Assembly (NCBI GenBank): GCA_965225855.1
Contig: CBDDCK010000005.1
Span: 480,001 to 544,000, forward strand
Direction: 5' to 3'
Length of the DNA stretch: 64,000 bases
Source: Spirochaetia bacterium
GTDB taxonomy: Bacteria > Spirochaetota > Spirochaetia > SP-2023
In this document: one piece after another, positions 36,902-60,425 of the stretch
Layout of the letters: each line of letters opens with the position of its first letter
Position numbering within the stretch: position 1 is the first letter of the stretch
The notes under the pieces: model-generated
Database searches by the model: none
What the model was told of the DNA's origin: nothing
The model's input: the letters and a program-made list of their open reading frames with translations, nothing else
Program-made: the position numbers and the translations under genes

Positions 36902-38671
36902 TTGGCAACAAAATTAGATTTTATTGACAGTATGCCCAATCGTTTACAGCTTTGTGTGTTCCACTACCACTTAAAGCCCGGTGGGGTTACCGATGTTATT
37001 ATGGGCTGGATTCGCGTCTTGGCGCGTTATTCGGCAGAAATTTTCCCCCAATATCGAGAGCTTGTGGTGCGCGTATGTTGTGGCAGCGCAGAAAATGTAG
37101 CACAATTGCAGTCAGAAGATTTTGGTTTGCTAACTGTTGATTTTGCGATAGACAGCCGGCTCGGTTATGACAATCAAGATATACTATCTTTTGGCAAAGA
37201 TTATCCCAAACATATAGAGCAAGTGGCGACGCATTTATTAGAGCATTACAACGCTAAAGGTTGGGATAATTTATGGTGGCTGCACAATTATCATTTGGGG
37301 AAAAACGTCGATTATACTCAAGCGTTGCTTCAAATTGTTCAGCAGCTAAAGCCGGCCAATTTAAGCTTTTTATTGCATATTCACGATTTTCCCGAATGTG
37401 GGCGACTTGCGCTGTATCAAAAATTGCTTCAAAGTCAGTGCAGTTTGTATAGTCAATGTTCTGCCGAAGTTGCTCTGCTGTATCCAATTGCGCCTAATGT
37501 TTGTTATAGCACAATCAACAAGAGGGATTTACAAATTCTGCGAGATGCTGGTTTACCAGAGCAGAAATTATTTTTTTTGCCAAATCCTGTGATATTTGAT
37601 GATTTAACAAAATTTCCTGTCGATAGCGCTTCTTTGCGCATGCAATTTAACCAAAATTTTTGTTTGCCAGATGCGCCATTGGCATTGTATCCAGTGCGCT
37701 GTATTCGGCGCAAAAATATTTTAGAACTGGCACTGCTGAATGTATTGACCAAAAAGCCGTGGAATTTGGTTTGTACTTTGCCCGGGGTATCGGAGAGTGA
37801 ACAGCTTTATTCAAAACAGGTTGAAAACTTATATCAAAATGGGGTGATTCAAGGTGCTTGCCATGTTGGCCTGCAATTAGAGCAAAAAGGCTGGAGCTTT
37901 GCCATGTTGTGCCATGCTGCTGATATTATTGTTTCTAGCTCTGTGATGGAGGGTTTTGGCTTTACTTATTTTAACTCGATGTACTGGGGCAAAACTTTAT
38001 TTGCTCGCTATCTTGATGTTCTACAAGGTTTTGAGCATTGTTTTGAACCTGCGTTGTCCCTATTTTATCGCCAACTAAAAATTCCACTGTACAAGCTTAA
38101 TGGTAGGGTAGACCCTATATTAGCAGAATTATATTTTGAGCTACAACAAAAATATAGCAATTACATGCTTGGCTTGCCAGCTTTTGTGGGTAGGGAATTG
38201 CAACGTGAATTTAGCAAATTGCTTAAGCCGTCTGGTGAGCAGCTGCCCGAATATTTGGATTTTGCTTTATTCAATTTAGCCCAGCAAAAAAAACTTTTAT
38301 GGCGCTTGCACCATCATAAAAATGATACTGAAGATTGTTTTTTGCTAGCTTGCCGCCAAGCAAACTCAAATCTACTACAAGGTTTTGAATCTTTTCTATT
38401 TTATTCTGAAAATTTGCTTAAAAATCCTTCTGAAAATAAAGTGCAGCAAAATCGCAAAGATCTTGTTCGCAAAGATCTTGCCACCGAATTTGCACCACAA
38501 CGCCTTGCAAAAATTTTCAAGCAAGCGAGTATGGCTTGTTTGTCTGATCGTTTTGTGCTTGAGCCCAAATGTGCTGTTGATTTAGCTGCGATTAGCTATA
38601 ATGTTTTGCGTTCCTTTAGCAAATGGCAATATCATTATGCTATTTTATTGGACGATTGCTTGGGAAAATAA
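36902..38671 (+). CDS. GT-B fold (family 4-like) glycosyltransferase
   Basis: HYHLKPGGVTDV, HNYHLGKN, HIHDFPE, YPVRCIRRKN, SVMEGFG. Confidence 0.75.
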   Translation: MATKLDFIDSMPNRLQLCVFHYHLKPGGVTDVIMGWIRVLARYSAEIFPQYRELVVRVCCGSAENVAQLQSEDFGLLTVDFAIDSRLGYDNQDILSFGKDYPKHIEQVATHLLEHYNAKGWDNLWWLHNYHLGKNVDYTQALLQIVQQLKPANLSFLLHIHDFPECGRLALYQKLLQSQCSLYSQCSAEVALLYPIAPNVCYSTINKRDLQILRDAGLPEQKLFFLPNPVIFDDLTKFPVDSASLRMQFNQNFCLPDAPLALYPVRCIRRKNILELALLNVLTKKPWNLVCTLPGVSESEQLYSKQVENLYQNGVIQGACHVGLQLEQKGWSFAMLCHAADIIVSSSVMEGFGFTYFNSMYWGKTLFARYLDVLQGFEHCFEPALSLFYRQLKIPLYKLNGRVDPILAELYFELQQKYSNYMLGLPAFVGRELQREFSKLLKPSGEQLPEYLDFALFNLAQQKKLLWRLHHHKNDTEDCFLLACRQANSNLLQGFESFLFYSENLLKNPSENKVQQNRKDLVRKDLATEFAPQRLAKIFKQASMACLSDRFVLEPKCAVDLAAISYNVLRSFSKWQYHYAILLDDCLGK

Positions 38672-38832
38672 ATATTTCCATGTGAGTAAAAAACTGTGAT
38701 AGATAGAAAAATTCTCAAAATAATGCATGAATATTTTGTAAATAGCGAAGAGGCCAAGCAACTGTTAAATGATAATAGAGGACCTTTAGATAAAAATGGA
38801 AAGCAATGCTACTCAATGATTAATCAAATACC

Positions 38833-40680
38833 TTGATGATATTCTCAACCGTAGAGAGCTTACAAAAGCAAAACAAAGTCCAAAACGAAAAATTAAAGGT
38901 GCTGAAACAATTATTTCCTGAAGTCATCAATTCCGATGGGCAATTAGACATCAACGCCCTTCAAGACTTCATAAGCCTTAACCAAACCACCGCCAACAAC
39001 AAAGGCTATGAACTTACCTTTGCCGGCAAGGGCTTGGCCAAAGCTAGAGCCAGCAGCGAAACGCCTTATGAACTCAAAACCGAAACAGAGCAAAGCAAAA
39101 ATTGGCACAGCACCGAAAATGTCATGATTCGGGGCGACAATTTAGAAGTATTGAAAATCTTGAAGGCAAATTATTTTGCAAAAGTTAAAATGATTTACAT
39201 AGACCCACCTTATAACACCAAAAGTGAAAACTTCATTTATAACGACAACTTCAAAAAAAACGAAAAAGATTTAATCAAAGACTTTGGTTTGGACGAAAAC
39301 ACCACAGACTTTTTAAGTAATGTTTATGGTACTCGTAGCCACAGTGGTTGGTTGGCGTTTATGTACCCTAGATTGAAATTAGCGCGTGATTTACTCAAAG
39401 ACGATGGCGTGATTTTCATCAGCATAGACGACAACGAACAAGCGAATCTAAAAATTCTTTGCGATGAGATTTTTGGCGAAGATAATTTTGTTGCCCAATT
39501 TGTTTGGAAGACAACAAAAAGCGCACAAGGTATGAAAACCAAAAACATGATTGTGAACAATCAAGAAATAATTTTTACCTATGCAAAGGACAGCAATATT
39601 TTTGAATTTATCGGTATGGAAAGAAATGATGTTGGGTTTTCCAATCCGGATAATGATCGAAGGGGGGCATGGAAAAGGCAGTATTTGCAAAGATTAGGGC
39701 AGAATCTATCAAAAAAGAGAATTGTCGATCCTATCACCAACATATCATATGAGTTTGAGACTCCTTATACTCAAGAAAAATTAGAACGTTGGATTGAAGA
39801 AGAAAGAATTATTTTTCCCAAAAATAAAAATGGCTACCCAGCTAGAAAAGAATTTTTAAGTGAATATAAAAATAATAAACAGTTGGTAACCAGTTTAGAT
39901 TTATACCCTACAAAATCATATACTGAAAAAGTTTATAAGTTTTTTGACAACTATAAAATATTTAATAACCCAAAACCGGACGATTTAATTAAATTCCTTA
40001 TCAAGAATAGCTTTAATACAAATAATGATATTATCCTAGATTTTTTTGCGGGTTCGGGCACTACCGGCGATGCGGTAATGCAATTAAATAATGAAGATGG
40101 CGGCAATAGAAAATTTATCTTAGTACAATGGGACGAAGCCATAAAAGAAAATACCGAAGCGTATCAATTTTGTATTGAAAATAACTTTGAGCCGGTAATT
40201 TCCAGTATTACCATAGAGAGACTAAATCGTGCGGGGGCTAAACTCAAACAAGAGCAAAAAGCCAAAGAAGGCATATTTGAAAGTGAAAAATTGGATATAG
40301 GCTATAAAGTCTTTTCGCTCAAGCCAAAACCGAAAATTATAGAAGACGATAATCATTTATTTACTTTAGAAAACCAAAGAGAACATACTACCGATACTGT
40401 ATATAATATGCTTTGCGCCACCAATAAACCTTTGCACACGCCTGTACAAGAACGTATTGCCGATAGTTTGTATTTGGTGGAACATATAGCAAAGGGCACA
40501 ATGCAAAAAAGTTTTTATTTGCTCAATATACCCAATGAGGAAATAGCCAAACAGATAATTGCTGAATTGGACAAAAATCCCGATAGCCAAATTTATATAG
40601 ATGGCTATAGTAGTATCAAACTGCAAAATTGGCTAAATTTGGGTATCGAGAGTAAAGAGAGTGTAAGGGTGGTTTATTAG
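38833..40680 (+). CDS. mod: Type III RM methyltransferase (mod-1), no adjacent res
   Basis: [46 protein letters not shown]; start codon uncertain. Confidence 0.92.
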
Positions 40681-40716
40681 AAATAATTTCATTATAGCAA
40701 TTTTATTGGGGAAACA

Positions 40717-41136
40717 ATGATGGATAACAACAGAATAAAACATTTGGAGTTTTTGCAAAATATCATTACTAGAATGAATACCAATTCATTCCAAATAAAA
40801 ACTTTTACCGTTACTATGGTATCTGCGCTGTTAGCGGTTTTTGCCTCTACTAAAAATGAATTATTTATTTTGATTGGAGTTTTTGCAGTGTTGTTGTTTT
40901 GGTTTTTGGATAGTTATTATTTGCAGCAAGAAAGAAAATTTAGAGGCATCTATAACAATATTTCTGGCCTAAAAAAAGATGTTGCAATTAAAGATTTTGA
41001 AATGCCTATACATAAGTTTGTTGGTGGGCAGTTCAATTATTGGCAAGTATTTTGTTCTAAGACAATATGCTTATTTTATGGCTTTATTATAAGTTCCTTG
41101 ATAATAATTTTTATTGTTTTTAATTTTTGTTATTAA
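40717..41136 (+). CDS. Small membrane protein, putative defence effector
   Basis: 139 aa, about 3 TM; HLEFLQNIITRMNTNSFQIK and LDSYYLQQERKFR. Confidence 0.7.
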   Translation: MMDNNRIKHLEFLQNIITRMNTNSFQIKTFTVTMVSALLAVFASTKNELFILIGVFAVLLFWFLDSYYLQQERKFRGIYNNISGLKKDVAIKDFEMPIHKFVGGQFNYWQVFCSKTICLFYGFIISSLIIIFIVFNFCY

Positions 41137-41200
41137 GGTTTTGTTGATTATTAGGGTTGGGGATAAAATTTTTATCTTAATGTAAAGAAAAGTAGAGTTT

Positions 41201-41254
41201 ATGATAAACAAAAAAGAGTTGAGTCAAAATGCTATAAAAACCGTAGACAGTTAA
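41201..41254 (+). pseudogene. 17-codon 5' stub of a mod gene
   Basis: MINKKELSQNAIKTVDS* aligns without gaps to MINQSDLPKHNIPSLDS (mod-3) and MLTEQDLSQHNIKSLD (42055 stub). Confidence 0.55.
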
Positions 41255-41332
41255 AAAATGGAATATTGAGTTTTAAAGATTTCGCTTATGGATTAAAACA
41301 AAAGCAATTCATAATTCATCAAGGGAGAATAA

Positions 41333-41752
41333 ATGGTGAATGAAGATATAAGATGGCAACAGCGGTTTTTGAATTTTCAAAAAGCATTTCATCAACTCCA
41401 TGAAGCTATGGAGATTTTAGAAAAACGCCCTTTAACTAATTTAGAAAGGCAAGGTTTCATTCAAGCCTTTGAATATACCCACGAGTTAGCTTGGAAAACC
41501 ATGAAAGACTTTTTAGAATACAAGGGCAATACACAAACCATTTATGGTTCAAAAGACGCCACAAGAGAAGCGTTTAACGTAAATCTTATCACGCATGGAG
41601 AAGATTGGATGCGTATGATAAACAGCAGGAATTTAACCTCACACACTTATAATGAGGCTAAAGTACAAGAAATTATAAAGCTTATATCAAACAATTACTT
41701 TGTTAGATTTGTAGAATTTAAGGAAAAATTTCAAGAGCTTCAAAACCAGTAA
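41333..41752 (+). CDS. HEPN protein (HI0074-like nucleotidyltransferase substrate-binding family)
   Basis: GFIQAFEYTHELAWK and RNLTSH (RX4H). Confidence 0.88.
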   Translation: MVNEDIRWQQRFLNFQKAFHQLHEAMEILEKRPLTNLERQGFIQAFEYTHELAWKTMKDFLEYKGNTQTIYGSKDATREAFNVNLITHGEDWMRMINSRNLTSHTYNEAKVQEIIKLISNNYFVRFVEFKEKFQELQNQ

Positions 41753-41753
41753 T

Positions 41754-42053
41754 ATGTTCGGATTATCGCAAATCACGATAGATTCTATCAATGCAATTTT
41801 TGTAAATTATCAAAGTATTTTAAAGGTTATCGTGTATGGTTCAAGGGCAAAAGGCAATTACAAAGAAGGCTCTGATATAGATTTGGCTTTATTTGGCAAT
41901 GGCTTGGATTTTAAGGTTATCAGTGAAATAGATTGCAAAATTGATGATTTGATGTTGCCCTACAAAATAGACCTTTGCATTTACAATCATTTGGAAAACA
42001 GCGACTTAAAAGATCATATCAATAAAGTAGGTAGGCTTTTCTTTGAGAAATAA
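41754..42053 (+). CDS. Minimal nucleotidyltransferase (MNT), partner of the HEPN protein
   Basis: YGSRAKGNYKEGSDIDL, LPYKIDL; 99 aa. Confidence 0.9.
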   Translation: MFGLSQITIDSINAIFVNYQSILKVIVYGSRAKGNYKEGSDIDLALFGNGLDFKVISEIDCKIDDLMLPYKIDLCIYNHLENSDLKDHINKVGRLFFEK

Positions 42054-42054
42054 C

Positions 42055-42210
42055 ATGCTAACTGAACAAGATTTAAGCCAACACAACATCAAAAGCCTAG
42101 ACCCTTCGCAAACGCACAAGGAAAGCCAAAACGCAACACTACAAGCCCTCAAACAATTATTGCCGGAAGTCATCAATGCCGATGGGCCGATGGCCAATTG
42201 AATATTGAGG
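42055..42210 (+). pseudogene. 5' fragment of a mod-3-like gene with an 8-bp duplication
   Basis: MLTEQDLSQHNIKSLDPSQTHKESQNATLQALKQLLPEVINADG; DNA closely matches 58419-58566; GCCGATGG is doubled at 42178-42193. Confidence 0.9.
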
Positions 42211-42234
42211 TCAAATTGAAGGTAGAATTACTAT

Positions 42235-43197
42235 ATGCCAAACAAATCACATTTTAATAAAGGACATATTGCACTCAATAATCAAAGAAAAAATGGCGTT
42301 AGCCATAGTTCTAAAATAGATTTACCGGCGCATAATGTCAAAAAAACAACTCATACGGTTTTCATTCAAGATGCTGTCAAGGCGTTAAAAAATATTCCTG
42401 ACAATACGATTCAATTAATCTTGATCGATCCACCTTATAATTTAGATTTAGATTATTGGGATACCTTTGAGAATTATTTGGAGTGGGCTAAATTGTGGCT
42501 GGACCCAATATACAGAGTTTTAGCACCTTCTGGAAATTGCGTTATCTTTGGAGGTTTTCAGTATCAAGACCTTAAAAAGGGAGACCTTTTAGAAATACTG
42601 TATTACACAAGGCATTCGACTAATTTGCGTTTTGTAAATCTTATAATATGGTATTACAGAAATGGAATGAGTGCTCATAGGTTTTTTGCAAACCGGCATG
42701 AAGAAGCAGTTTGGTTGTCAAAAACAAAAAAGTATTATTTTGATCTTGATTCGGTAAGAATTCTATACGATGAAGAAACAAAAAAAATCTATAAAAAGGA
42801 TAAAAGACTAAATCCTGATAGTGTAGATAAAGGCAAAAACCCTACAAATGTTTGGGAAATAAGTAGGCTTAACGGAAATTCAAAAGAGAGAGTCGGCCAC
42901 CCCACACAAAAACCAATAGAAATTATACGGAGATTTGTTCGCGGTCTTTCATACCCTGGTTCTCTAGTTCTTGATTTCTTTGCTGGATCAGGAACAACTG
43001 GCAGAGTTTGTATTGAAGAAGGTAGGAATTCAATATTGGTAGATGACGATTCTACTTTGAATGACTACCTTCAGACACATATAGAACAAATAGATGATAC
43101 GTTTATGAAACCTTATGAAATAGTTCAGGGTAACGATATATCTAAAACTATTAGTAAAGTTTGGAATATCGATCGTAATAAAGTAGTATCCGTTTAG
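42235..43197 (+). CDS. Orphan beta-class N6-adenine methyltransferase, M.RsrI-like (probably GAATTC)
   Basis: DPPYN before [60 protein letters not shown] match M.RsrI as recalled. Confidence 0.88.
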   Translation: MPNKSHFNKGHIALNNQRKNGVSHSSKIDLPAHNVKKTTHTVFIQDAVKALKNIPDNTIQLILIDPPYNLDLDYWDTFENYLEWAKLWLDPIYRVLAPSGNCVIFGGFQYQDLKKGDLLEILYYTRHSTNLRFVNLIIWYYRNGMSAHRFFANRHEEAVWLSKTKKYYFDLDSVRILYDEETKKIYKKDKRLNPDSVDKGKNPTNVWEISRLNGNSKERVGHPTQKPIEIIRRFVRGLSYPGSLVLDFFAGSGTTGRVCIEEGRNSILVDDDSTLNDYLQTHIEQIDDTFMKPYEIVQGNDISKTISKVWNIDRNKVVSV

Positions 43198-43253
43198 AAA
43201 GTTGGTTTAATCTGGGTGCGCATAATAAGAAAAATATCACGGTGGTTTATTGA
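43182..43253 (+). pseudogene. 3' fragment of a mod-3-like gene
   Basis: SSIRLESWFNLGAHNKKNITVVY* versus mod-3 SSICLEDWFNLGAHRTDKKNIAVVY*. Confidence 0.85.
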
Positions 43254-43286
43254 TGGAAACGGGAGTTTAAGTAAGGAATAAACAAT

Positions 43287-44618
43287 ATGGCACAAGACAG
43301 TATTCTGCAATTAAAAATTGAAAACTTTAGGGCTATCAAAAAGGCTGATATTGAGCTTAATGGCATTACTGTAGCAGTAGGTGAAAATGGGGCCGGTAAA
43401 AGTACTATTTCTAAATTACTGTATTATTCTATTAAGATTGTCAATTACTATGATGAAGTTATTTATGAAAAACTAAAAGATAGGATATATGAGATAATAA
43501 AAGTGTTATCATCTATCAACCGCTATTATGACAATGATGATTTGAAAAATGATTTAGATTCTGTAAGAAACAACGATGCTGTTAATAAAAAAGAATTGCT
43601 TATTGATATTATTGATCGTCTCCAAGAATATGATGATAAACAATTGGGTAGAAAAATAGACAAAATAAGGTATAGATTGCTATTGAATTTTATTATTAGA
43701 AATGATGTTGAGGACTTTGATAATATTAAGGATTCTAAGGATGTTTGGAATATCTTAAAGAAAAAGGTTGTCCAATTATATGACAATGCCCAAAAAGATA
43801 TTCAGGCCAGAAGTAAAAAAATCTTTGAAAACAAATTGGCTAGTGTGTTTAATCAGAAACTGAAAGACTTTGTTGTTTGTGAGCATGGTGAAGCTATTAT
43901 TAGCAGAGACGATCAGCTAGGACAATTTTTCAGTATATCTAATGCTATTTATATAGATAGCCCTATGGCGGTGGAACATCCGGCCTATAAGGGGCGTTGG
44001 GGATATAGGGATATAGATACCGATGCCTTTAGCCATTGGAAAGATTTAAACTTTTATCTTAAAGAGACCAATCAAAAGCATCTTGAAGAAATTAGAGATA
44101 CAGATATATATGGTGAATTGCAAGATATTTTTAGTTCTGACGAAATTTTAGATGGAAAAATATCCATTAATGAAGGACGAGAGGAATTAATATACCGTAG
44201 AAACGATGGCCAAAATTTTCCTATTTTGGATTGTGCCACAGGGGTAAAGTCGATTGCTATTTTACAAATGCTCTATATTAATGGCTGGTTGAGTAATAAA
44301 ACGCTATTAATTTTAGATGAACCCGAAACTCATTTGCACCCACAATGGATTGTGGAATATGCCCGATTGGTAGTTTGGCTGAACAAAAAAGTAGGGGTTA
44401 CGTTTTTTATAGCGTCTCATAATCCCGATATGGTAAGTGCGATACAAGATATTAGCGACAAACAAGGTATTAATGACAACCTTAAATTTTATCTTGCTAA
44501 AAAACAAGAAGACTATACTTATAAATTTAACGATCAAGGCACAGATGAAGAGAATATTTTTGCCTCATTTAACATAGCCATAAACAAGATAAATAAATAT
44601 GGCGGTGATGATGAGTAA
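43287..44618 (+). CDS. AAA_15/AAA_21-like ABC-type ATPase (defence-associated)
   Basis: IENFRAIKKA, GENGAGKST, ATGVKS signature, LILDEPETHLHP, ASHNP. Confidence 0.85.
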   Translation: MAQDSILQLKIENFRAIKKADIELNGITVAVGENGAGKSTISKLLYYSIKIVNYYDEVIYEKLKDRIYEIIKVLSSINRYYDNDDLKNDLDSVRNNDAVNKKELLIDIIDRLQEYDDKQLGRKIDKIRYRLLLNFIIRNDVEDFDNIKDSKDVWNILKKKVVQLYDNAQKDIQARSKKIFENKLASVFNQKLKDFVVCEHGEAIISRDDQLGQFFSISNAIYIDSPMAVEHPAYKGRWGYRDIDTDAFSHWKDLNFYLKETNQKHLEEIRDTDIYGELQDIFSSDEILDGKISINEGREELIYRRNDGQNFPILDCATGVKSIAILQMLYINGWLSNKTLLILDEPETHLHPQWIVEYARLVVWLNKKVGVTFFIASHNPDMVSAIQDISDKQGINDNLKFYLAKKQEDYTYKFNDQGTDEENIFASFNIAINKINKYGGDDE

Positions 44619-45102
44619 ATATTGCCAAAATGTAACCTTAAATCATAAAGTAGCTCAAGAATATATAGATTGTGTTCAATCAATTGATTGTATTTGCAGA
44701 GAAGAAAGTTTTCATGAAGGAAAAAAGAAATGTTGTGATGTAGAGAATATTACATTTGGAGATGCGCAAGCCATCAATTTAGATTGTGTAATGAGAAAAG
44801 AAAAACCTATTCTTGCTTCTGTGGATATAATAATAGGATTAAATAATAAACGATATGTTGGGATTGAATTAAAATTGAATGTTAAAAAAGTTCCTATAAA
44901 TGATTCACAACAACTTAAAAGGAAAAGGTGTAATACGCTGAAGAAACTTAAATGTCAAGAAAACAATATGGACTTTGTTTTAATTTATTGCAGAACTTCA
45001 AAAGCGGAAAATTATTTACATAGAATACAAAGAGAGAGAAATCCGCCAAAACACGGATATGAAATAATGTTTCTTGAAGATTTTAAAACAAAATTTTGGT
45101 AG
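44599..45102 (+). CDS. Hypothetical protein, possible PD-(D/E)xK nuclease, coupled to the ATPase
   Basis: Overlaps the ATPase stop (ATGAGTAA); SVD...GIELK motif; Cys-rich. Confidence 0.55.
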   Translation: MAVMMSKYCQNVTLNHKVAQEYIDCVQSIDCICREESFHEGKKKCCDVENITFGDAQAINLDCVMRKEKPILASVDIIIGLNNKRYVGIELKLNVKKVPINDSQQLKRKRCNTLKKLKCQENNMDFVLIYCRTSKAENYLHRIQRERNPPKHGYEIMFLEDFKTKFW

Positions 45103-45118
45103 AGAGTATTCAAAAACA

Positions 45119-45688
45119 TTATTCAAACAAGATTAGAGCTTTATAATAAACCAGAACATCAGCTAGGCTCGCTTGAGAGCCCAATAAATAAACGGAATTT
45201 TTTTGTAATAACCTTTCATATTTTGCTAAAGTTAGCAAGCATTGTTGTTGGGCCGCACGCCAGAAATGTTCACAACTAGAGCTAGGGCTTGAATGGCAAT
45301 TCCATTCATTTTTATAGCGTTCTGGGTATTTATAGCAGTCTAAATAATATTTGAATGGTCCATCATTTTCATTGCCGATCGCTTCAGTCTGCAATCTTTG
45401 TTCTTCATCAAGGCCTACCCACCAATTGTCTCTATCAAATTGGCCGTTATTTCGTTCTAAAGCCCAATGCATAATGTCCCAACTTTCCTCACAAAGATAC
45501 GCAGTTTCAGCATGGTAAAGTACAGGAACTGTAACCCGTTCTTTATGCGATAATTTTACTAAATCATAAGGCTTATTCTTCAAAGACACTTCAATCAAAG
45601 AAAAGGGTAATTGGCTATATTCAAGCACCATACGGCAGCGTATTGCATAAGGGCAACGCCTAAATGAATAAAAAATATATGGTTTCAT
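45119..45688 (-). CDS. Glutathione S-transferase family protein, probably C-terminally truncated
   Basis: YSFRRCPYAIR, TVPVL, EESWDIM, FKYYLDCYKY; ends 12 residues after SLAD. Confidence 0.8.
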   Translation of the reverse strand: MKPYIFYSFRRCPYAIRCRMVLEYSQLPFSLIEVSLKNKPYDLVKLSHKERVTVPVLYHAETAYLCEESWDIMHWALERNNGQFDRDNWWVGLDEEQRLQTEAIGNENDGPFKYYLDCYKYPERYKNEWNCHSSPSSSCEHFWRAAQQQCLLTLAKYERLLQKNSVYLLGSQASLADVLVYYKALILFE

Positions 45689-45776: not shown

Positions 45777-45870
45777 GTTTCTATGCATAGAAACATTTTG
45801 TTTTTATAGATAGAATCGTTTTGTTTCTATTTATGGAATATCTTTATTTTTATATATAGAATTGTTATTT
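45777..45870. repeat. 23-bp-period palindromic tandem array, copy A (4 units)
   Basis: TAGAA/TGGAA at 45788, 45811, 45834, 45857; perfect 18-bp palindrome GTTTCTATGCATAGAAAC at 45777-45794. Confidence 0.8.
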
Positions 45871-46715: not shown

Positions 46716-48164
46716 ATGGAATCTAAAACAATTGAAAATCTTGAAAAACTCAAAATATTGAAAGATGATATTCTTTTAAGTGAAATAAATGAATTAGATG
46801 ACTCTTTAACAAGATATTTTTCTTCCGCTTTTAATATTGATGATGCCTTGACTAGAAAGATTGTCAGTTTCCAAGCAAATAAATCTCGCACATATTATAA
46901 ATTATATAAATATAAAGAGGCGTTTTCCGTAGATTTAGTAGAATATCTTTTTCATAAATATAAAGTAGAATATGGTAAAATTCTTGATCCTTTTGCTGGG
47001 TCTGGTACATCTTTGTTTGCTGTTTCATCATTAGGTTATCAAGCAGAAGGTATTGAACTCTTACATGTAGGACAAAAAATTATAAAAGCAAATATACTGA
47101 TTAGAAATGATAATAAGAAGAAAATTACTGCTGGATTGAAAACTTGGCTATATAAAAAACCTTGGAATAATAAAGGGGAAATTAAAGATTTTGAAATACT
47201 TCGTATAACTAATGGGGCATATCCCTATGAAACGCATCAAAAAATTAAGCGGTATCTTAATGATTTAGAATATGAAATACAAGAAATCAAAGAAATACTA
47301 TTATTTGCACTTCTGTCTATTCTTGAATCAATTAGTTACACAAGAAAAGATGGCCAATACCTTCGCTGGGACTATAGAGCTGGACGTAGAAATGGTAAAC
47401 ATATTTTTGATAAGGGAAAAATCTATTCATTTGATGAAAGTATCATAGAAAAGTTAGCTGAAATAATAAAAGATATAAATTATGAAGATAATAATGATGA
47501 TTTATTGTTTCTAAAACAAAAGAATATAGAAAAAGGGGATATTAGCTTATTAAAAGGTTCGTGTTTAGATATTTTGCCTAAACTAAAAGGATATAGTTAT
47601 TCTGGAATAGTAACATCACCACCTTATTGTAATCGTTATGACTATACGCGTACTTACGCATTAGAACATGCAATACTTGGTATAAATCAAAATAAATTAT
47701 CTAATTTAAGACAAGCCATGTTAAGTTGTACAGTAGAAAATAAAATAAAAGAGCTTACTAATTTAAGCTATGATTGGAAAATAGCGATAGAGATTTGTGA
47801 AAATTTACCATTACTGCAAAAAATATTAGATTATTTAGATTATAAAAAAGAGATAAAAAAGCTTAATAACAATGGTATTGCTCGTATGGTTAGAGGTTAT
47901 TTTTACGAAATGAGTTGTGTTACTCAAGAATGTTATAGAGTATTAGATAAAGATGGTATAATGTTTATGGTTAATGATAATGTTCGATATGCTGGGGCAG
48001 TAATACCTGTAGATATAATTCTTTCAAAAATAGCTGAAACAATCGGATTTAAGATAGAGAATATTCTTGTTCTGCCACAAAGTAAAGGCAATAGTTCTCA
48101 ACAAATGGGTACGTATGGGCGATCAGTTTTAAGAAAGTGTGTGTATATATGGAAGAAGATATAA
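46716..48164 (+). CDS. N4-cytosine methyltransferase, M.BsoBI/M.AvaI-like (CYCGRG)
   Basis: YKYKEAFS, LDPFAGSGT, TSPPYCNRYDYTRTYALE, KGNSSQQMG; adjacent to a BsoBI-like REase. Confidence 0.85.
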   Translation: MESKTIENLEKLKILKDDILLSEINELDDSLTRYFSSAFNIDDALTRKIVSFQANKSRTYYKLYKYKEAFSVDLVEYLFHKYKVEYGKILDPFAGSGTSLFAVSSLGYQAEGIELLHVGQKIIKANILIRNDNKKKITAGLKTWLYKKPWNNKGEIKDFEILRITNGAYPYETHQKIKRYLNDLEYEIQEIKEILLFALLSILESISYTRKDGQYLRWDYRAGRRNGKHIFDKGKIYSFDESIIEKLAEIIKDINYEDNNDDLLFLKQKNIEKGDISLLKGSCLDILPKLKGYSYSGIVTSPPYCNRYDYTRTYALEHAILGINQNKLSNLRQAMLSCTVENKIKELTNLSYDWKIAIEICENLPLLQKILDYLDYKKEIKKLNNNGIARMVRGYFYEMSCVTQECYRVLDKDGIMFMVNDNVRYAGAVIPVDIILSKIAETIGFKIENILVLPQSKGNSSQQMGTYGRSVLRKCVYIWKKI

Positions 48165-48167
48165 CAA

Positions 48168-49128
48168 ATGCCATTTAAAAATCATCTAAAGTCATATCAA
48201 GACTTAATTACCCCCTTATGAAGAAACAAGAGCAGGATTTATTTCATTAGCATTAGAAAAGAACAGAAAAGCAACGCCCTTTATTGAAGAAGCTAAAGCA
48301 CTCAAAGTATTTGCATCAAAAGCAAAAAGGCCAAAAGATTTATTGGAAATATACGAAATTAAAGACTCCCTACTTACAGCATCGGGAGTCTCTGAAAAAG
48401 CAAAAAACTACTTAGAAAAAGATGATAAAGAAGAGGCTATATACCAACTAATAAAGAATTTTTTAGAACCTGCTGGAAAGGCGTTTTTAGATGAATTAAT
48501 CTATCGTTTTTTGCTAACAAGAGGAGATTCTTTGGGCGGTAGTATGAGAAATCTAGCGGGTGTACTGGGAGAATGGCGGTTTACAAGAATGTTTATATCT
48601 ACCTGTTCCATTAGCGGAATAAATTTAGAATATCTTGATTCTAAAACTAAGAAATGGATAAATCATAATTCTGATCCTGAGATAGAGAAACAGATAAAAG
48701 GCTTATATTGGGTTTATAAAAACAAAGAGCGTACCATAATTTATAATTTAACTGTGCCAATATTAAAAAAGAATATTGACCTTTGCTTGTTTGATAGTTC
48801 TCCTAGTCAGATAGTATTTGGTAAAAATGCCAATTCGGTACACCATAATTTTACAAAATATCTTGCCTTAGGTGAATTAAAAGGTGGTATTGACCCAGCA
48901 GGAGCAGATGAACACTGGAAGACCGCCAATTCAGCATTAGCTAGAATTAGGGCTGCATTTTCTGAACAATGTTGTCCTGTTAAAACATTTTTTATTGGTG
49001 CGGCAATTGAAAATGCGATGGCAAAAGAAATATATGAACAATTGAATAATGGCATTCTTTCAAATGGGGCAAACTTAACAAATGAAAATCAAGTTGTTTC
49101 ATTGTGTAATTGGTTAATTAAATTATAA
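48168..49128 (+). pseudogene. BsoBI/AvaI-family type II restriction endonuclease with +1 frameshift at 48211-48217
   Basis: GELKGGIDPAGADEHWKTA, LTRGDSLGGSMRN. N-terminal MPFKNHLKSYQDLITP joins YEETRAGFISLALEKN if one base is removed from CCCCCTT, giving 319 aa. Confidence 0.88.
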
Positions 49129-49227: not shown

Positions 49228-49362
49228 TTTCTATGTATAGAACTGTTCTCGTTTCTATATATACAATCGCTTTATTTCTATAGATAGAATCGTTTTGTTT
49301 TTATCTATAAGAATTTTTTGTCTTTATAGATAGAATCGCTTTGTTTGTATAGATAGAAATGA
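49228..49362. repeat. 23-bp-period palindromic tandem array, copy B (6 units)
   Basis: Unit starts at 49238, 49262, 49285, 49308, 49331, 49354; consensus TAGAATCGYTTTGTTTYTATAGA. Confidence 0.85.
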
Positions 49363-49502
49363 AAGTGTTGAAAATAGAGTTGTCGTATAATGAAATACGA
49401 AAAGAAAAACACTGCAAATAGAAGTATTAACGGAAACAACGAAAAGATTTCTATGGAATTATTCCTTTTTGCCTCTTCATTTTAACTTTATTGGTTGGGT
49501 AT

Positions 49503-50418: not shown

Positions 50419-50502
50419 CATGTATAGAACCGTTTTGTTTCTATCTATAGAAATTTTTTGGTTTTATGGATAGAATAGGTTTGTTTTTATATATGGAAAT
50501 GA
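50419..50502. repeat. 23-bp-period palindromic tandem array, copy C (4 units)
   Basis: Unit starts at 50425, 50448, 50471, 50494; begins ATGTATAGAAC and ends GAAATGA like copy B. Confidence 0.8.
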
Positions 50503-50538
50503 TAGACGAATTTATAGGAAACAAGTTAGGTTTAAAAT

Positions 50539-50676
50539 ATGAACATCAAAGAAGAACAAACAACGGACAATATCAAAATACCCTATAATATGAAGATTCT
50601 CAAAAAGCATTTTTCACACTGCTTTGATAAAGCGGGGGCTTTTGATTTTAGTAAGCTGATAGTTATTATCTTTTGA
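50539..50676 (+). pseudogene. 5' fragment of a mod-2-like gene
   Basis: MNIKEEQTTDNIKIPYNMKILKKHFSHCFDKAGAFDFSK; 50608-50645 is identical over 38 bp to 52980-53017. Confidence 0.88.
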
Positions 50677-52516: not shown

Positions 52517-52650
52517 TCTCTTTTAGTTTATGTAATTTCATATACAAAATTTCGCAATCATAGATTTTTACTAAAAGTTAGTTTATTGTAATTTTATTCT
52601 CTAATCAATGCTTAAAAATTATTTTATTGTTTTAGCCATATAAAAATACA

Positions 52651-52784
52651 GCCAAAGTTATCTCCGTGAATTGCTCGGGCAATATACGGGAAGAGCTTTG
52701 GCTAAATACGGGAAGAGCTTCGGCTAAATACGGGAAGAGCCCCGACTAAATACGGGAAGAGCTTCGGCAATACACTGTTTTACT
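52651..52784 (+). repeat. Leader element copy 1: conserved 5' flank, 4 x 22 bp, conserved 3' flank
   Basis: GCCAAAGTTATCTCCGTGAATTGCTCGGGC; units at 52681, 52703, 52725, 52747 (TAAATACGGGAAGAGCTTCGGC); then AATACACTGTTTTACT. Confidence 0.92.
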
Positions 52785-52889
52785 TAGAGGCGGCTACTTA
52801 GTAGGCCAACACTTTATTATTGTTGTTTAGGTTTTTATTTAAATGCCGAGGATATGGCAATATGCGGTAAACGATAACAGGAATAACCA

Positions 52890-54887
52890 ATGATAGAACT
52901 AGGACAAGAACCAGAAATTATAAAACAACGCCTAACCGATAACATTAAAGCACCGAATAATATCGAGCTTTTAAAACAACATTTTTCACACTGCTTTGAT
53001 AAAGCGGGGGCTTTTGACTTTGCTAAATTTAAGCAAGAGCTTTCGCAAAATGAAGAGACTAATTTTTCTAAAGAAAGTTACGGCTTAGAGTGGCTGGGCA
53101 AAAGCTATGCCAGACTTTTGGCTAGCGATGAAGCCACCACCTTACTTAGAGAAAATAAAGAGTGGAACGCCCAAGCCCAAAACCAAAACAGTCAAAATCT
53201 ACTCCTCAAAGGCGATAATCTGGAGGTGCTAAAGCATTTAAGTAATGCCTACTACCAAAAAATCAAGATGATATACATTGACCCACCTTATAATACAGGT
53301 AGTGATGGCTTTGTCTATCAAGATAATAGAAAGTTTAATACCCAAGAGTTAGCCGAGTTGGCAGGCATAGACGAAGAACAAGCTCAACGCATTTTGGACT
53401 TTACCCAAAGCAAAAGCAACTCCCACAGTGCTTGGCTTACCTTTATGTACACCAGATTATACATTGCCAAACAATTACTCAAAGACGATGGCGTACTATT
53501 TATTAGCATTGACGACAACGAACAAGCCAATCTAAAACTACTTTGTGATGAGATTTTTGGCGAGGATAATTTTGTAGGAAATATTATTTGGCATAAAAAA
53601 ACACAACCTTCTTTTTTAAGTAGTGAAATATCTAATGTTAAAGAGTATATTTTACTTTATAAGAAGTCTGAAAAATTGATTAAAACTTTTGGAGGGACTA
53701 CAAACCCTGATAAAAAGATAGAGATGATAAATGCTTCAAATAAAGAAGATGTTAGGACTTTTAACAGAAATAATATTATTTTTGACAATGGTGCTTTTAA
53801 CGGTATTTTACAAAAAGGTAAGTATGGGAATGCTAATTTACAAATAGAACTACTACAAAATGTTGAGATAGCTAACGGAAAGCCGTTATGTGATTTTGCA
53901 TTAATAGGTAGGTTTAAGTGGTCTCAAGTAAAAATCAATGAATCTTTTAGTAAAGGGGATACATTTTATTTAACTACAAAAACATTAAGACCAATTATGG
54001 AACAAAAAGAAAAAGTGGTAAAAACAAAACCAATTCTTGATTTATTAAGTAAGAAAACTAATTTTGAAATAGGGACTAATACAGATGGGACAAATGAAAT
54101 AGCAAATATTTTTCAAAAAAAAGAATTATTTACTAATCCAAAGCCTACTAAATTAATCAAATACCTTATAAAAAGTATTGAAAACAACCCCAACGACCTA
54201 ATCCTAGACTTCTTTGCTGGCAGTGGTACTACTGGCGAGGCGGTAATGCAATTAAACAGTGAAGACGGCGGTAATAGAAAGTTTATCTTGGTACAGTGGG
54301 ACGAAGCCATAAAAGAAAACAGCGAAGCCTATCGGTTTTGTACGCAGAACAATTTAAAGCCCGTTATTTCTAGTATTACACAAGAACGCCTTATAAGAGC
54401 TGGGCAAAAGCTAACAAAAGGGAATATAACGGACTTATCCACTTTGGATTTGGGTTTTAAGATTTTTGAAACCATAGCCAACGATGAGGGCGTGTGGGCA
54501 AATTATGACTTTGCAGCTAAAGAATCAAATGACAATATTGTCCTTTTGGACGAGGAAAAATTGCAAGAACAAGACTTGCAAAACCTACTCACCACTTGGA
54601 AAACTTATGACAATATCCCGCTAACCCAAGATTTAAGCGCGGTGGATTTAGCAGGGTATAAGGGCTATTACTTTGACAGTAAATTATATTTAGTCTATCC
54701 AGGTTTTGCGACAGAACACCTTGTAGCCCTGCTCAATAAAATAGATGGCGATACAAAATTTAATCCGGCCAATATCTACCTCTTTGGTTTTAACTTTGAA
54801 AGCAAAATGTTGCGAGAATTGGCAGAGAATATAGCCAATTACAAAAACAAGAAAGCAATTGAGATGGATTTAATCACCAGATATTGA
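52890..54887 (+). CDS. mod: Type III RM methyltransferase (mod-2, EcoPI/EcoP15I-like termini)
   Basis: [53 protein letters not shown]. Confidence 0.93.
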   Translation: MIELGQEPEIIKQRLTDNIKAPNNIELLKQHFSHCFDKAGAFDFAKFKQELSQNEETNFSKESYGLEWLGKSYARLLASDEATTLLRENKEWNAQAQNQNSQNLLLKGDNLEVLKHLSNAYYQKIKMIYIDPPYNTGSDGFVYQDNRKFNTQELAELAGIDEEQAQRILDFTQSKSNSHSAWLTFMYTRLYIAKQLLKDDGVLFISIDDNEQANLKLLCDEIFGEDNFVGNIIWHKKTQPSFLSSEISNVKEYILLYKKSEKLIKTFGGTTNPDKKIEMINASNKEDVRTFNRNNIIFDNGAFNGILQKGKYGNANLQIELLQNVEIANGKPLCDFALIGRFKWSQVKINESFSKGDTFYLTTKTLRPIMEQKEKVVKTKPILDLLSKKTNFEIGTNTDGTNEIANIFQKKELFTNPKPTKLIKYLIKSIENNPNDLILDFFAGSGTTGEAVMQLNSEDGGNRKFILVQWDEAIKENSEAYRFCTQNNLKPVISSITQERLIRAGQKLTKGNITDLSTLDLGFKIFETIANDEGVWANYDFAAKESNDNIVLLDEEKLQEQDLQNLLTTWKTYDNIPLTQDLSAVDLAGYKGYYFDSKLYLVYPGFATEHLVALLNKIDGDTKFNPANIYLFGFNFESKMLRELAENIANYKNKKAIEMDLITRY

Positions 54888-54921
54888 TATGCCAAAATAG
54901 TTTTAGCGATGCAATAACATA

Positions 54922-55011
54922 GCCAAAGTTATCTGCGTGAATTGCTCGGGCAATATACGGGAAGAGCTTCGGCTAAATACGGGAAGAGCTTTGGCAATAC
55001 ACTGTTTTACT
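54922..55011 (+). repeat. Leader element copy 2 (2 x 22 bp)
   Basis: Same flanks; units at 54952 and 54974. Confidence 0.92.
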
Positions 55012-55109
55012 GAAACGCTGCGCTTGTGGACGGTACTGGTAAAAATACTCATTGATTATGGTTGTTTGGTTTTTGGTTTCAATGCTGAAGGTTGATAAGA
55101 GATACGAAT

Positions 55110-58031
55110 ATGGTAAAATTACATTTTGAAAAGAACTTAGAACATCAACGACAAGCCGTTGAGGCCACTATCAAAGTCTTTGATGGGGTAGAACAACAAA
55201 CGCCTAAGGGCGTGCATAAAAATAGTATCAATCCAACTTTTAATTACCAAAGCCTTGCATTCAAACAGAATATCAAGCAAATACAAAGGCATAATGGCAT
55301 TGAAGCAAAACCAACTTTTTCTAATATCATTGATATTATGATGGAGACGGGCACGGGCAAGACTTATACCTATACCAAGACTATTTTTGAGCTGAATCAG
55401 CATTACGGCATTTTTAAGTTTATTGTGGTTGTGCCCACCTTGCCCATTAAAGCCGGGACAATTGATTTTTTACAATCCGATAGCACCAGAGGGCATTTTC
55501 AAACCCAGTACAACAAAAGAATCAATCTGCATATTGTCCAAAGCGAAAATAAAAAAGCTAACAAAAAATCATCGGCTATGCCTCCGGCGATTAGCGAATT
55601 TGTCAAGGCACAAAACCATAACAATATGGAAGTGATGATTATCAATGCAGGAATGATTAACTCGGACACAATGGGCAAAACATACGATACCACTTTATTT
55701 GATAGGTACAAAATACCTTTTGAAGGCATAGCAGAGACCAAGCCCTTTATAATTATAGACGAACCACACAAGTTTGATAAGAAAAACAAAACTTGGGAGA
55801 ATATACAAAAATTCAATGCTCAATGTATCTTGCGCTATGGTGCAACCTTTCCCGAAAAACAGATTAAAAGGCCAATACCCTTATTAAAGAAAAAAGAAAC
55901 TATAAAAATTAAAGATTATCACAATCTGATTTATGAACTCAAAGCTATAGATGCCTTTAACCAAAAGCTAGTCAAGGGAGTTATTGGGCATATTACCGAG
56001 TTTGCAGAAGGCCAAAAGGTTATGGTGCAATTAACAGGCTCTGATGACAAGGAAGCGAGTTTTAAATTGATTGGTACTAAAGACAAAAATAGCGTTAAGC
56101 TAACCAAAAAACAGAGCTTATCAAAAATACATCAAGCCATAGATGATTTGTGTATAGATAAACTCAATAAAACAGAAGTGATACTTTCCAATGGCTTACA
56201 ACTCAAAAAGGGCGATAAGATTAGCCCCTTTTCTTATCACCAAACCCTGCAAGAGTATATGATAGCAAAAGCGGTAGGGAAACACTTTGAAAAAGAAAGG
56301 GCCTACCTTACGCAAGAGGTCAAAATCAAACCCTTGACACTATTTTTTATCGACAATATTGATGAGTACAGAGACCAAGAAGGCAGTATAAGGCAAATAG
56401 TCGAAACGCAAATTAAAGCCCAAGCGGAAGGATTACTCGAAGGTGAAAACAATGCTTTTTATAAAAGCTATTTAGAACAAACGCTAAAGGATATTGCCCA
56501 AACGCACGGCGGCTATTTCTCCAAAGACAACAGCGATAAAGACGATAAAATTGAAAAAGAAGTCAATGAGATTTTGCACGATAAGCAAGCCTTATTGGAC
56601 TTAAACAATACAAGGCGATTTATCTTTTCTAAATGGACACTCAAAGAAGGCTGGGATAACCCCAATATATTCCAAATTTGCAAATTGCGCAGCAGTGGTT
56701 CGGAAATATCCAAACTGCAAGAAGTCGGTAGAGGCTTGCGCTTGCCGGTCAATGAATACGGCAATAGGGTCAAAGATATCGAGTTTTATTTGGATTATTT
56801 CGTGGATTTCACCGAAGATGATTTTATTGACCAACTGGTTCAAGAGGTGAATCATAAGTCCAATGCTTTCTCAAGAGAGGCCCATTACGACAAGCTAAGC
56901 GATGAAATGGTCGGAATGATTTGCAAGCATTATAGTATTTCAGAAGAGGATTTATTAAAGAGCTTAGACGAACAAAACCTTATTACAAGGGCAAATCAAT
57001 TTAAAGAGGGTGGTCTAGATTATATTAGAGAACACTATCCTTTGATCTTTGCAGGCGTTGATAGCAATCAAATACGAAAAGATACAGATACCAAACCAAA
57101 GGCTAAAATAAGGGTTGAAAAGTATCCCCAGCTACAAGCCTTGTGGGAGAAGCTGAACCAAAAAGTTATCTTAGAGTATAACATAAAAAATGAACCAGCA
57201 TTTAAAGACTTACTGAATGGCTTTTTAGAAAATGCTACTTCCTTTGTAAGTACGGGGATTACAGAAAAAACGCAACAGATTAAGCTGAAAAAGGACGAGG
57301 CTTTTATATTGGAAGAAACCTCGATTAGCGATAGCGACTTAACCGCAATGGTTACCATGCCCTACGATAAGTTTTTAAAACAGCTAGCCAAAGCCTTACA
57401 TATCAATATGAAAACCTTGCATAACGCTTTTGTGGATTTGCATATTCCTATTAACCAATACCTTAACCAGACGACTATAAGAAGCTTTAAACAAAAATTT
57501 AATAACTATTTAATGCATCAAGCCATCAATGATTTTGGCATCGCCTACCAACAAGTAACCAACGCTATTCACCCCACCAAGCTCACCAATACCCAAGGCG
57601 ATGTACAAAAAGAAATCAATGCTGCCGATGTGGGCGTACTGCAATCCGGCGAAAAAGTAGCGGATAAATACCTTTTTGAACAATTATTTTATGATTCGGA
57701 GTTAGAAAAAGAAAATATCAAGCAGAATATTCAAGAAGTGATTGTCTTTACCAAAATCCCCAAAAACTCTATAAAAATCCCCGTTGCAGGGGGCAAAAGC
57801 TATTCGCCGGACTTTGCCTATGTATTCAAATCAAAAGATGGCAACGAGCAACTACACTTTATCGTAGAAACCAAAAATGCCGATGAAGAAGGGCTAAGAG
57901 CTGAAGAACAAGCCAAAATACAATATGCCGAACAATTTTTTAAAGGGGCTATCAAAGTTAAATTTGAAACGCAGTTTAAAGAACAAACAATAATCGAGCT
58001 GATTGAGAAAGCATATAACGGGCAGATATAA
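55110..58031 (+). CDS. res: Type III restriction endonuclease subunit (res-1)
   Basis: METGTGKT, IIDEPH, LKEGWDNPN, QEVGRGLRL, C-terminal YSPDF...IVETK nuclease. Confidence 0.95.
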   Translation: MVKLHFEKNLEHQRQAVEATIKVFDGVEQQTPKGVHKNSINPTFNYQSLAFKQNIKQIQRHNGIEAKPTFSNIIDIMMETGTGKTYTYTKTIFELNQHYGIFKFIVVVPTLPIKAGTIDFLQSDSTRGHFQTQYNKRINLHIVQSENKKANKKSSAMPPAISEFVKAQNHNNMEVMIINAGMINSDTMGKTYDTTLFDRYKIPFEGIAETKPFIIIDEPHKFDKKNKTWENIQKFNAQCILRYGATFPEKQIKRPIPLLKKKETIKIKDYHNLIYELKAIDAFNQKLVKGVIGHITEFAEGQKVMVQLTGSDDKEASFKLIGTKDKNSVKLTKKQSLSKIHQAIDDLCIDKLNKTEVILSNGLQLKKGDKISPFSYHQTLQEYMIAKAVGKHFEKERAYLTQEVKIKPLTLFFIDNIDEYRDQEGSIRQIVETQIKAQAEGLLEGENNAFYKSYLEQTLKDIAQTHGGYFSKDNSDKDDKIEKEVNEILHDKQALLDLNNTRRFIFSKWTLKEGWDNPNIFQICKLRSSGSEISKLQEVGRGLRLPVNEYGNRVKDIEFYLDYFVDFTEDDFIDQLVQEVNHKSNAFSREAHYDKLSDEMVGMICKHYSISEEDLLKSLDEQNLITRANQFKEGGLDYIREHYPLIFAGVDSNQIRKDTDTKPKAKIRVEKYPQLQALWEKLNQKVILEYNIKNEPAFKDLLNGFLENATSFVSTGITEKTQQIKLKKDEAFILEETSISDSDLTAMVTMPYDKFLKQLAKALHINMKTLHNAFVDLHIPINQYLNQTTIRSFKQKFNNYLMHQAINDFGIAYQQVTNAIHPTKLTNTQGDVQKEINAADVGVLQSGEKVADKYLFEQLFYDSELEKENIKQNIQEVIVFTKIPKNSIKIPVAGGKSYSPDFAYVFKSKDGNEQLHFIVETKNADEEGLRAEEQAKIQYAEQFFKGAIKVKFETQFKEQTIIELIEKAYNGQI

Positions 58032-58149
58032 TAAGTATATACTGCTTCACTGAAAGCACAAAACCAAACGCCCCCACCCAAACAGAGCCCCCAAGAGCGC
58101 CTTACAGCAAATAATTTTGGCAAATAGCTTTAGCAATTTAACAAAACAA

Positions 58150-58260
58150 GCAAAGTTATCTCCGTGAATTGCTAGGGCAATATACGGTCAGAGCCCCGAC
58201 TAAATACGGTCAGAGCTCGCCCTAAATACGGGAAGAGCTTTGCCCATATACTGTTTTACT
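58150..58260 (+). repeat. Leader element copy 3 (3 x 22 bp, more diverged)
   Basis: GCAAAGTTATCTCCGTGAATTGCTAGGGC; units at 58179, 58201, 58223; then CATATACTGTTTTACT. Confidence 0.9.
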
Positions 58261-58418
58261 TAGAGGCTACCCTTAAAGGCTAGCATTCAAAGTAGTTATG
58301 TGCCAGTGGTGGATGCGATGGCTAGCTGGGAATTTTACATAAATATGATTGGCCAAAACCATACTAATTGATTATGATTGCTTTGATTTTTTATGTGAAT
58401 ACTAAGGAGAGTGGAGCT

Positions 58419-60341: not shown

Positions 60342-60425
60342 TGGGGAAGCCAATTAAATCTAGGCGTGGATAATGCCAATAAGTAAAATATTATTGTGGT
60401 TTGTTAGAAATTTAAAAATTAGAAA

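Follow-up and report, generated by a model that had tools for sequence, protein, structure and literature searches.

A type II M.RsrI-like methylase gene flanked by the start and end remnants of a type III mod gene in a spirochaete defence island

We describe an intact type II methylase gene of the M.RsrI family that lies in the genome of a Spirochaetia bacterium between the start and the end of a type III mod gene, and whose stop codon falls in the 3' mod remnant. We consider it probable that a methylase-nuclease pair had entered the mod, and that a later deletion removed the nuclease together with the rest of the mod.

The locus and its mod remnants

The window, by which we mean the whole stretch of 64,000 nucleotides that was analysed, corresponds to positions 480001-544000 of contig C5 of the genome under study (G000, 94% complete). 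It contains a defence island in which three intact type III mod genes and two res genes stand among numerous cargo genes. Positions given without a contig name are those of the window.

A HEPN-type gene (41333-41752, plus strand, Pfam PF08780) and a nucleotidyltransferase gene (41754-42053, plus strand, Pfam PF18765) stand as a pair directly upstream of the locus. A single nucleotide separates these two genes, and another separates the nucleotidyltransferase stop from the ATG at 42055, with which the 5' remnant of a type III mod begins (42055-42210, plus strand, 156 nt). This remnant consists of the first 148 nt of a mod-3-like gene and of an 8-nt tandem duplication, which was seen in the alignment (42178-42193, plus strand) and frameshifts it; the resulting 48-codon leader stops at 42199-42201. 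The remnant is followed by a spacer of 24 non-mod nucleotides (42211-42234, plus strand), by the methylase gene (42235-43197, plus strand, 320 aa) and by the 3' remnant of a mod (43182-43253, plus strand, 72 nt). The latter overlaps the last 5 codons and the stop of the methylase (TAG, 43195-43197), retains 23 open codons in the mod frame and ends in VVY*. About 1.7 kb of mod is missing, and the locus has no intact Mod reading frame.

Both remnants were identified by blastn, shuffle tests and translation. Positions 42080-42210 are 87% identical (114/131, one 8-nt gap) to 58444-58566 in mod-3, the intact type III mod used as reference (58419-60341, plus strand, PADLOC MTase_III E 2.3e-145). They are equally 87% identical to mod-4, which lies outside the window (G000:C5:1810026-1808059), and 78% identical over 79 nt to the intact type III mod-1 (38836-40680, plus strand, PADLOC MTase_III E 3e-145). 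For positions 43179-43251 blastn gave 87% (69/79) with mod-4 and 80% (63/79) with mod-3. The remnants are thus homologous, at 80-87% DNA identity to mod-3/mod-4, to mods that pair with a res. Local alignment scores were 180 for the 5' remnant and 109 (mod-4) or 79 (mod-3) for the 3' remnant, against maxima of at most 38 in 300 shuffles; the interior (42216-43160) scored 26 against mod, inside the range of 60 shuffles, and is not mod-like. The sequence-only reading that preceded this analysis had placed the methylase between a mod start and a mod end and its stop in mod DNA, and both points are upheld by these scores and coordinates. Its choice of mod-3 as the match holds for the 5' piece, in a tie with mod-4, and gives way to mod-4 for the 3' piece. 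Since the mods here are mosaics, their comparison cannot tell whether the 3' end came from the same mod or from the next one in the array.

Although 1.27 Mb apart, mod-4 and mod-3 share 1063 nt at 97.8% identity (G000:C5:1810336-1809274 versus window 58064-59126), covering the upstream region and the 5' half, as well as 666 nt of the 3' end at 92.9%, and their middles differ. On sequence comparison, this pattern is that of a classic recognition-domain exchange.

The spacer carries a Shine-Dalgarno-like GAAGGT, which matches GGAGGT, as expected from the 16S tail, at 5/6 positions and lies 11 nt before the methylase ATG. A promoter scan of 38600-45400 gave 26 sites versus 32.6 +/- 5.3 in shuffles, none of them on the plus strand inside the remnant or the spacer, and was uninformative. 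The earlier suggestion that expression signals of the mod are reused has partial support. The incomer brought its own ribosome-binding site, the scan shows no promoter-like site in the remnant, and transcription would need an upstream source, for which read-through from the HEPN-type/nucleotidyltransferase pair is the likely candidate.

A mod-methylase fusion protein is ruled out by in-frame stops in the spacer, one of them at 42223-42225; the open frame of the methylase measures 323 aa. The 8-nt duplication is no target-site duplication, as both copies lie left of the junction; it was possibly selected to end the leader before the methylase start. The direct repeat expected of an insertion with a long target duplication is not seen, the flanks matching opposite mod ends and not each other, though one copy of such a duplication could have gone in a later deletion.

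Two cargo genes stand behind the shell, an AAA ATPase gene (43287-44618, plus strand, Pfam AAA_15/AAA_21) and its partner (44599-45102, plus strand), which matches no family in Pfam and PADLOC searches. They are followed by a glutathione S-transferase (GST) gene on the minus strand (45119-45688), which comparison with its G002 homologue shows to be cut at 45148/45149: the match stops at residue 180, and the homologue is about 55 residues longer. Cut at 45149, the gene takes its stop from foreign DNA, and borrowed stops are, as this truncated gene illustrates, a routine by-product of junctions in the island.

The remaining mod material of the island comprises the 5' scrap of a mod-2-like gene (50545-50655, plus strand; tblastn 68% over 37 aa, blastn 82% over 88 nt), the intact mod-2 (52890-54887, plus strand, Pfam) with its intact type III partner res (55092-58031, plus strand, Pfam) and, directly behind mod-3, the decayed 3' end of a second mod (60354-60407, plus strand; blastn 78% over 54 nt to mod-4; score 48 versus a shuffle maximum of 29). 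At the start of mod-1 (38816-38838) a mod-3-like MINQ runs into a stop after 6 codons, and the long frame begins 20 nt later. The same island holds a methylase paired with a BsoBI-family nuclease (46716-49128). Short blocks of tandem repeats precede mod and res genes, one family at 52626-52790, 54895-55025 and 58122-58238 and further blocks at 45777-45867, 49228-49365 and 50420-50505; the first family recurs at numerous sites of the genome, including before the family-B mods described below.

The methylase gene

The methylase ORF matches M.RsrI (PDB 1eg2) over residues 1-299 with an E value of 1e-107, and its best PADLOC model is MTase_II PDLC03327 (E 7.8e-112). DPPY at 65-68 precedes FFAGSG at 248-253, i.e. 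motif IV comes before motif I, and both motifs are invariant in 28 aligned sequences. The enzyme belongs to the beta class, with a predicted GAATTC N6-adenine specificity, which follows from the homology, the EcoRI-family neighbours of its relatives and the depletion of GAATTC described below.

The gene looks functional, as far as its sequence tells, and not decayed. It departs from the consensus at 3 of 178 conserved columns, the median of 119 relatives being 2, and among the 125 codons that differ from the gene at locus L011, 86 differences are synonymous and 39 non-synonymous. Residue 91 is a proline in the window copy and in no other; at this position E, Q or H occurs in the 119 relatives, and Q in the copy of sample X4. 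The sequence-only reading had asked whether the native C-terminus was lost; the tail after Y294 has a normal length (26 residues versus a median of 27 in 119 relatives). Borrowing is limited to the last few C-terminal residues, and the two valines may even be native, as some relatives end in ...EVVA. Because the C-terminus of the relatives is variable, the borrowed stop should cost nothing.

Relatives of the methylase and the missing nuclease

From 160 loci returned by scans of genomes and metagenomes we surveyed 37, at 52-83% identity, some of which are near duplicates and several of which have short flanks. A nuclease partner lies alongside the relative at 28 of these 37 loci. At 22 of them it is an EcoRI-family gene, located downstream in 16 cases (L018 being counted here) and upstream in 6, and at 6 it is an upstream helicase-nuclease; one further locus (L013) has a decayed nuclease start, and no partner was seen at 8. 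The loci with the helicase-nuclease, a protein of about 906 aa, are L015, L017, L030, L031, L095 and L098, which combine it with an M.RsrI-like gene and have no EcoRI-family gene.

In a tree built from the 45 best of 120 protein matches, the window protein falls into one group with P0002 and P0006 (99/95). P0002 is the closest protein among the matches listed (88% identity), and P0006 has the length and the C-terminus of the L011 gene. L011 is the nearest relative for which the context is known, and an EcoRI-family gene begins there within the methylase stop; the 3' junction of the window locus consequently falls just where the nuclease would begin.

The absence of an EcoRI/RsrI-like nuclease, already noted from the sequence, is confirmed to the extent that profile and tblastn searches of the 94% complete G000 found none. 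Pfam PF02963 gave no match for an EcoRI-family gene in G000, but the 14 controls of this search were silent too; tblastn of G000 with two EcoRI-family neighbours of the relatives gave a best E value of 1.6. No orthologue of the helicase-nuclease partner was found in G000 either, the best matches having 22-24% identity over the helicase core.

DNA and protein searches with the mods of G000 detected mod-like ends at 0 of the 37 related loci, a search in which diverged mod families may be missed. In the same-genus genomes G001-G003 the best match to the methylase had an E value of 4.5e-7, and none was a close relative. The sequence-only reading had suggested a look among relatives for an intact mod at this place; no orthologous locus was found in these congeners, and hence no pre-insertion allele. 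Of 80 loci kept from a scan of viral contigs, 2 exceed 55% identity.

GAATTC usage

GAATTC occurs 278 times in G000, where 738 occurrences are expected (O/E 0.38), and ranks fourth lowest among 64 palindromes; the more depleted ones are GATATC (O/E 0.22), TTCGAA (0.23) and TCTAGA (0.24). The ratio of GAATTC to CTTAAG is 278:441 in G000 versus 1010:286, 605:179 and 718:170 in three congeners that yielded no gene closely related to the methylase, these being raw counts and not corrected for composition. The depletion fits past exposure to an EcoRI-type nuclease and does not prove that this nuclease was encoded here.

A second case, empty shells and other mod arrays

A search of G000 for mod scraps, carried out with the ends of all 11 intact mods, revealed a second locus of similar architecture (L198, C5:776942-778249), composed of a mod start, a clipped DpnII-family nuclease, an intact type II methylase and a mod scrap. 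The mod start (C5:776942-777095, 154 nt) is of family B, and the 60 nt upstream of it match intact mods at 47-55 positions. After 31 non-mod bases comes the nuclease remnant, of which 55 codons are left, encoding the first 49 residues (94% to P0121) and the C-terminal EVFSGK. The methylase (777300-778217, 305 aa) is intact, and the 33-nt scrap of mod motif I behind it scored 40, a value that none of 300 shuffles and none of 250 control gene ends attained. The incomer at this locus was plainly a methylase-nuclease pair, and its nuclease was deleted on the spot. A plasmid search with the second methylase gave 41% at best.

Mod starts joined directly to mod ends, i.e. empty shells, were found at C5:784970-785137 and, on the minus strand, at 127572-127443. 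In the first of these the reading frame is kept across the joint, which lies at a 12-nt word present near either end of family-B mods, so that short-repeat deletion operates here. A lone mod 3' end lies at C5:110135-109976 (minus strand). The 5' remnants of the two methylase-bearing loci measure 156 and 154 nt; lengths of about 27 and 110 nt were found for other 5' scraps, and we therefore do not claim a hotspot near mod base 150. Mods make up about one fifth of the island, so that insertions into them need no targeting mechanism. A motif filter, which misses some methylases, retained 12 ORFs, of which 3 are parts of mods; shell-embedded methylases account for 2 of the other 9.

Family B consists of seven near-paralogous type III mods in two tandem arrays (G000:C5:113205-131973 and 769209-783668). 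For most of them the gene directly behind is not a res; by eye, we take the N-termini of these genes to resemble tetratricopeptide repeats. The gene 75 nt behind mod-4 (G000:C5:1807984-1804253, minus strand; L193:1251-4982) encodes 1243 aa, has no Pfam match and matches Cas12a3 structures (PDB 21we, E 2.8e-82). Tandem mod arrays with 5' and 3' halves that are 85-97% alike are also present in the congener G001. One of its arrays (L191-L192, G001:C1:487066-506349) has four mods, one split by an IS-like gene, with cargo between them and a single res at the end.

Assembly and a related sample

Runs X1 and X3 represent one sample, probably the source of the genome, and are not independent biology. 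In both, a single 8502-nt contig spans 42136-45500 with 0 differences and bridges both junctions, reaching 75 nt to the left of the 5' junction and far beyond the 3' junction. X4 is a different sample from a different study, for which 8 of 17 pieces were among the matches listed and coverage was taken from the depth table. Its 270-nt contig crosses the 5' junction, extending 131 nt to one side of it and 74 nt to the other, contains 8 substitutions in the arm and one inserted base, and also has the 8-nt extra of the duplication. Concern that the junctions were assembly artefacts is thus answered for both by single X1/X3 contigs and for the 5' junction by X4 as well.

The X4 pieces of the methylase (42255-43013) are 98.7-100% identical to the window, and three of the four listed differences are synonymous. 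Cover is missing in X4 at 41074-42009 and at 43225-43844, the latter including the 3' junction, and we do not read this as absence. From X5 a single 38-nt piece matched. In X4 the 5' junction is linked to another mod start, for which G000 gave no match, and its upstream neighbour is the segment corresponding to 45119-45148 and not the nucleotidyltransferase; the joint falls at window position 45148, where the GST gene of the window is cut. X4 thus shows an exchange in the 5' arm, for which a single crossover in a tandem array suffices.

Discussion

The probable course of events begins with a promoterless fragment, carrying the methylase and an EcoRI-type nuclease, that would have joined a mod near base 148. 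A later deletion would have fused the methylase gene, within its final codons, to the 72-nt tail of a mod, either the same one or the next in the array, with loss of the nuclease. This deletion probably occurred at a short shared word, as ...EVVA is the end of some relatives and two valine codons can spell AGTAGTA, with which the 3' remnant opens. The methylase would then be transcribed from upstream and translated from its own ribosome-binding site; it would mark GAATTC and may have been kept as protection against EcoRI-type nucleases, and the mod ends would be leftovers still able to recombine with intact mods. We favour this two-step route because 28 of 37 relatives have a nuclease, because of the gene overlap at L011, because GAATTC is depleted and because the nuclease of the second case was deleted in place. 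Counting against it, the locus has no trace of a nuclease, whose loss is deduced by analogy, three palindromes are more depleted than GAATTC, the window copy has its private Pro91, and the microhomology is a guess, the ...xVA end pattern occurring in only 6 of 119 relatives. The sequence-only reading had proposed a whole-gene replacement inside the mod shell; the end state it described is correct, and its single swap sits poorly with relatives that mostly have a nuclease and with a second case that lost its own in place.

A one-step origin, in which a methylase-only fragment recombined with one mod at two short homologies and replaced its middle, seems to us rather unlikely, though it deserves serious weighing. 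A lone methylase could have been the donor, given the 8 of 37 relatives without a partner seen. In its favour, one subfamily, mod-3/mod-4, gives the nearest match to either remnant, the mod frame has stayed open through the 3' remnant, and a weak similarity between methylase tail and mod extends about 15 nt to the left of the junction; short-homology exchange at mods is documented (PMC3467074). The survey of Oliveira et al. (2014, PMC4176335), as far as its general conclusion goes, finds in situ decay to be a rare origin of solitary methylases and so favours solitary genes arriving as such. However, one step would require two illegitimate crossovers, one of which would have trimmed the donor to within a few codons of where the nuclease begins; a partner is present in most relatives, the second incomer came with its nuclease, and GAATTC depletion points to an earlier exposure to the nuclease.

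Starting from the favoured two-step route, one may go further and regard tandem mods as landing pads, where promoterless type II systems enter near base 150 and lose their nuclease, after which the stumps let the whole methylase circulate among mod slots like a mod allele; we hold this extension to be doubtful. Still less probable is that the mod ends already act as homology arms between which the methylase moves, by double crossover, from one mod slot to another as a whole-gene allele. X4 would suit such movement, since it combines the same 5' junction and 8-nt extra with another arm allele, mod start and upstream neighbour, and so would the tandem mod arrays of G001 with their similar halves. 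Against this, the X4 evidence is one short contig of depth 7, linked by a 30-nt overlap, with the 3' junction uncovered; the same data would result if the 5' arm had undergone one crossover or a gene conversion within a tandem array, the 3' arm has just 72 nt, and 0 of 37 related loci have ends like the mods of G000. Misassembly or chance resemblance is hardly credible: mod paralogues do make branch points in short-word assembly graphs (joints to mod-3-type contigs), and no listed contig spans the whole 7 kb, but the 8502-nt contig without differences and the X4 bridge of the 5' junction oppose the former, and the shuffle tests exclude the latter.

M.RsrI of Rhodobacter sphaeroides is described as methylating the inner adenine of GAATTC (PMC7544214). 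The methylase reported here resembles it in homology over residues 1-299 and in its beta-class motif order, and differs in being embedded in mod remnants, with no cognate nuclease found and with a GAATTC specificity that is predicted. That type II systems replace a mod locus is already known from Helicobacter pylori PeCan4, in which the type III mod at locus 4 was, by the account of Furuta and Kobayashi (2012, PMC3467074), substituted by a type II restriction-modification (R-M) system and an IS. In both organisms an incoming type II system takes over a type III mod locus. In PeCan4, however, the nuclease and the IS are present, and the main text, figures aside, does not describe retained mod ends, whereas here both mod ends are kept, the nuclease is gone, the ORF scan of the window shows no IS and the pattern occurs twice in the genome. 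The same article suggests that target-recognition domains move between mods through short homologies of 8-117 bp. This too sets a foreign specificity between conserved mod ends, but as presented there it keeps an in-frame Mod and has its junctions at motifs IV-VIII and X-III; at the present locus the junctions lie at mod nt 148 and at the last 72 nt, the mod has lost its catalytic motifs and the passenger is a gene in its own right.

Exchange of the present locus as a cassette is hinted at. The cassettes of Neisseria and of pneumococci exchange through conserved flanks. These flanks are conserved neighbouring genes, whereas here they would be the stumps of a multi-copy methylase gene. Alternative whole-gene R-M cassettes at one locus are described for the minimal mobile elements of Neisseria (PMC1797815) and for pneumococcal DpnI/II/III (PMC12707154). 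What is new here are the retained mod ends, their recurrence in one genome and a hint that the 5' end is still recombining. In the openly readable text of the literature searched, we found no earlier account of an orphan type II methylase with mod ends retained on its two sides, which is a weak negative.

The two loci in one genome provide a readable record of the birth of orphan methylases, with the nuclease scar visible in one of them, and in-place loss of the nuclease runs against the conclusion on solitary methylases given in the survey cited above (PMC4176335). If the stumps are not used for exchange, the locus represents turnover of a defence island with an unusually clean scar. If they do serve exchange, mod arrays would serve generally as docking sites for methylases, whatever their class, and a methylome could switch class by ordinary recombination. 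Should tandem mods indeed be landing pads, recognition-domain swapping would extend to the swapping of whole enzymes.
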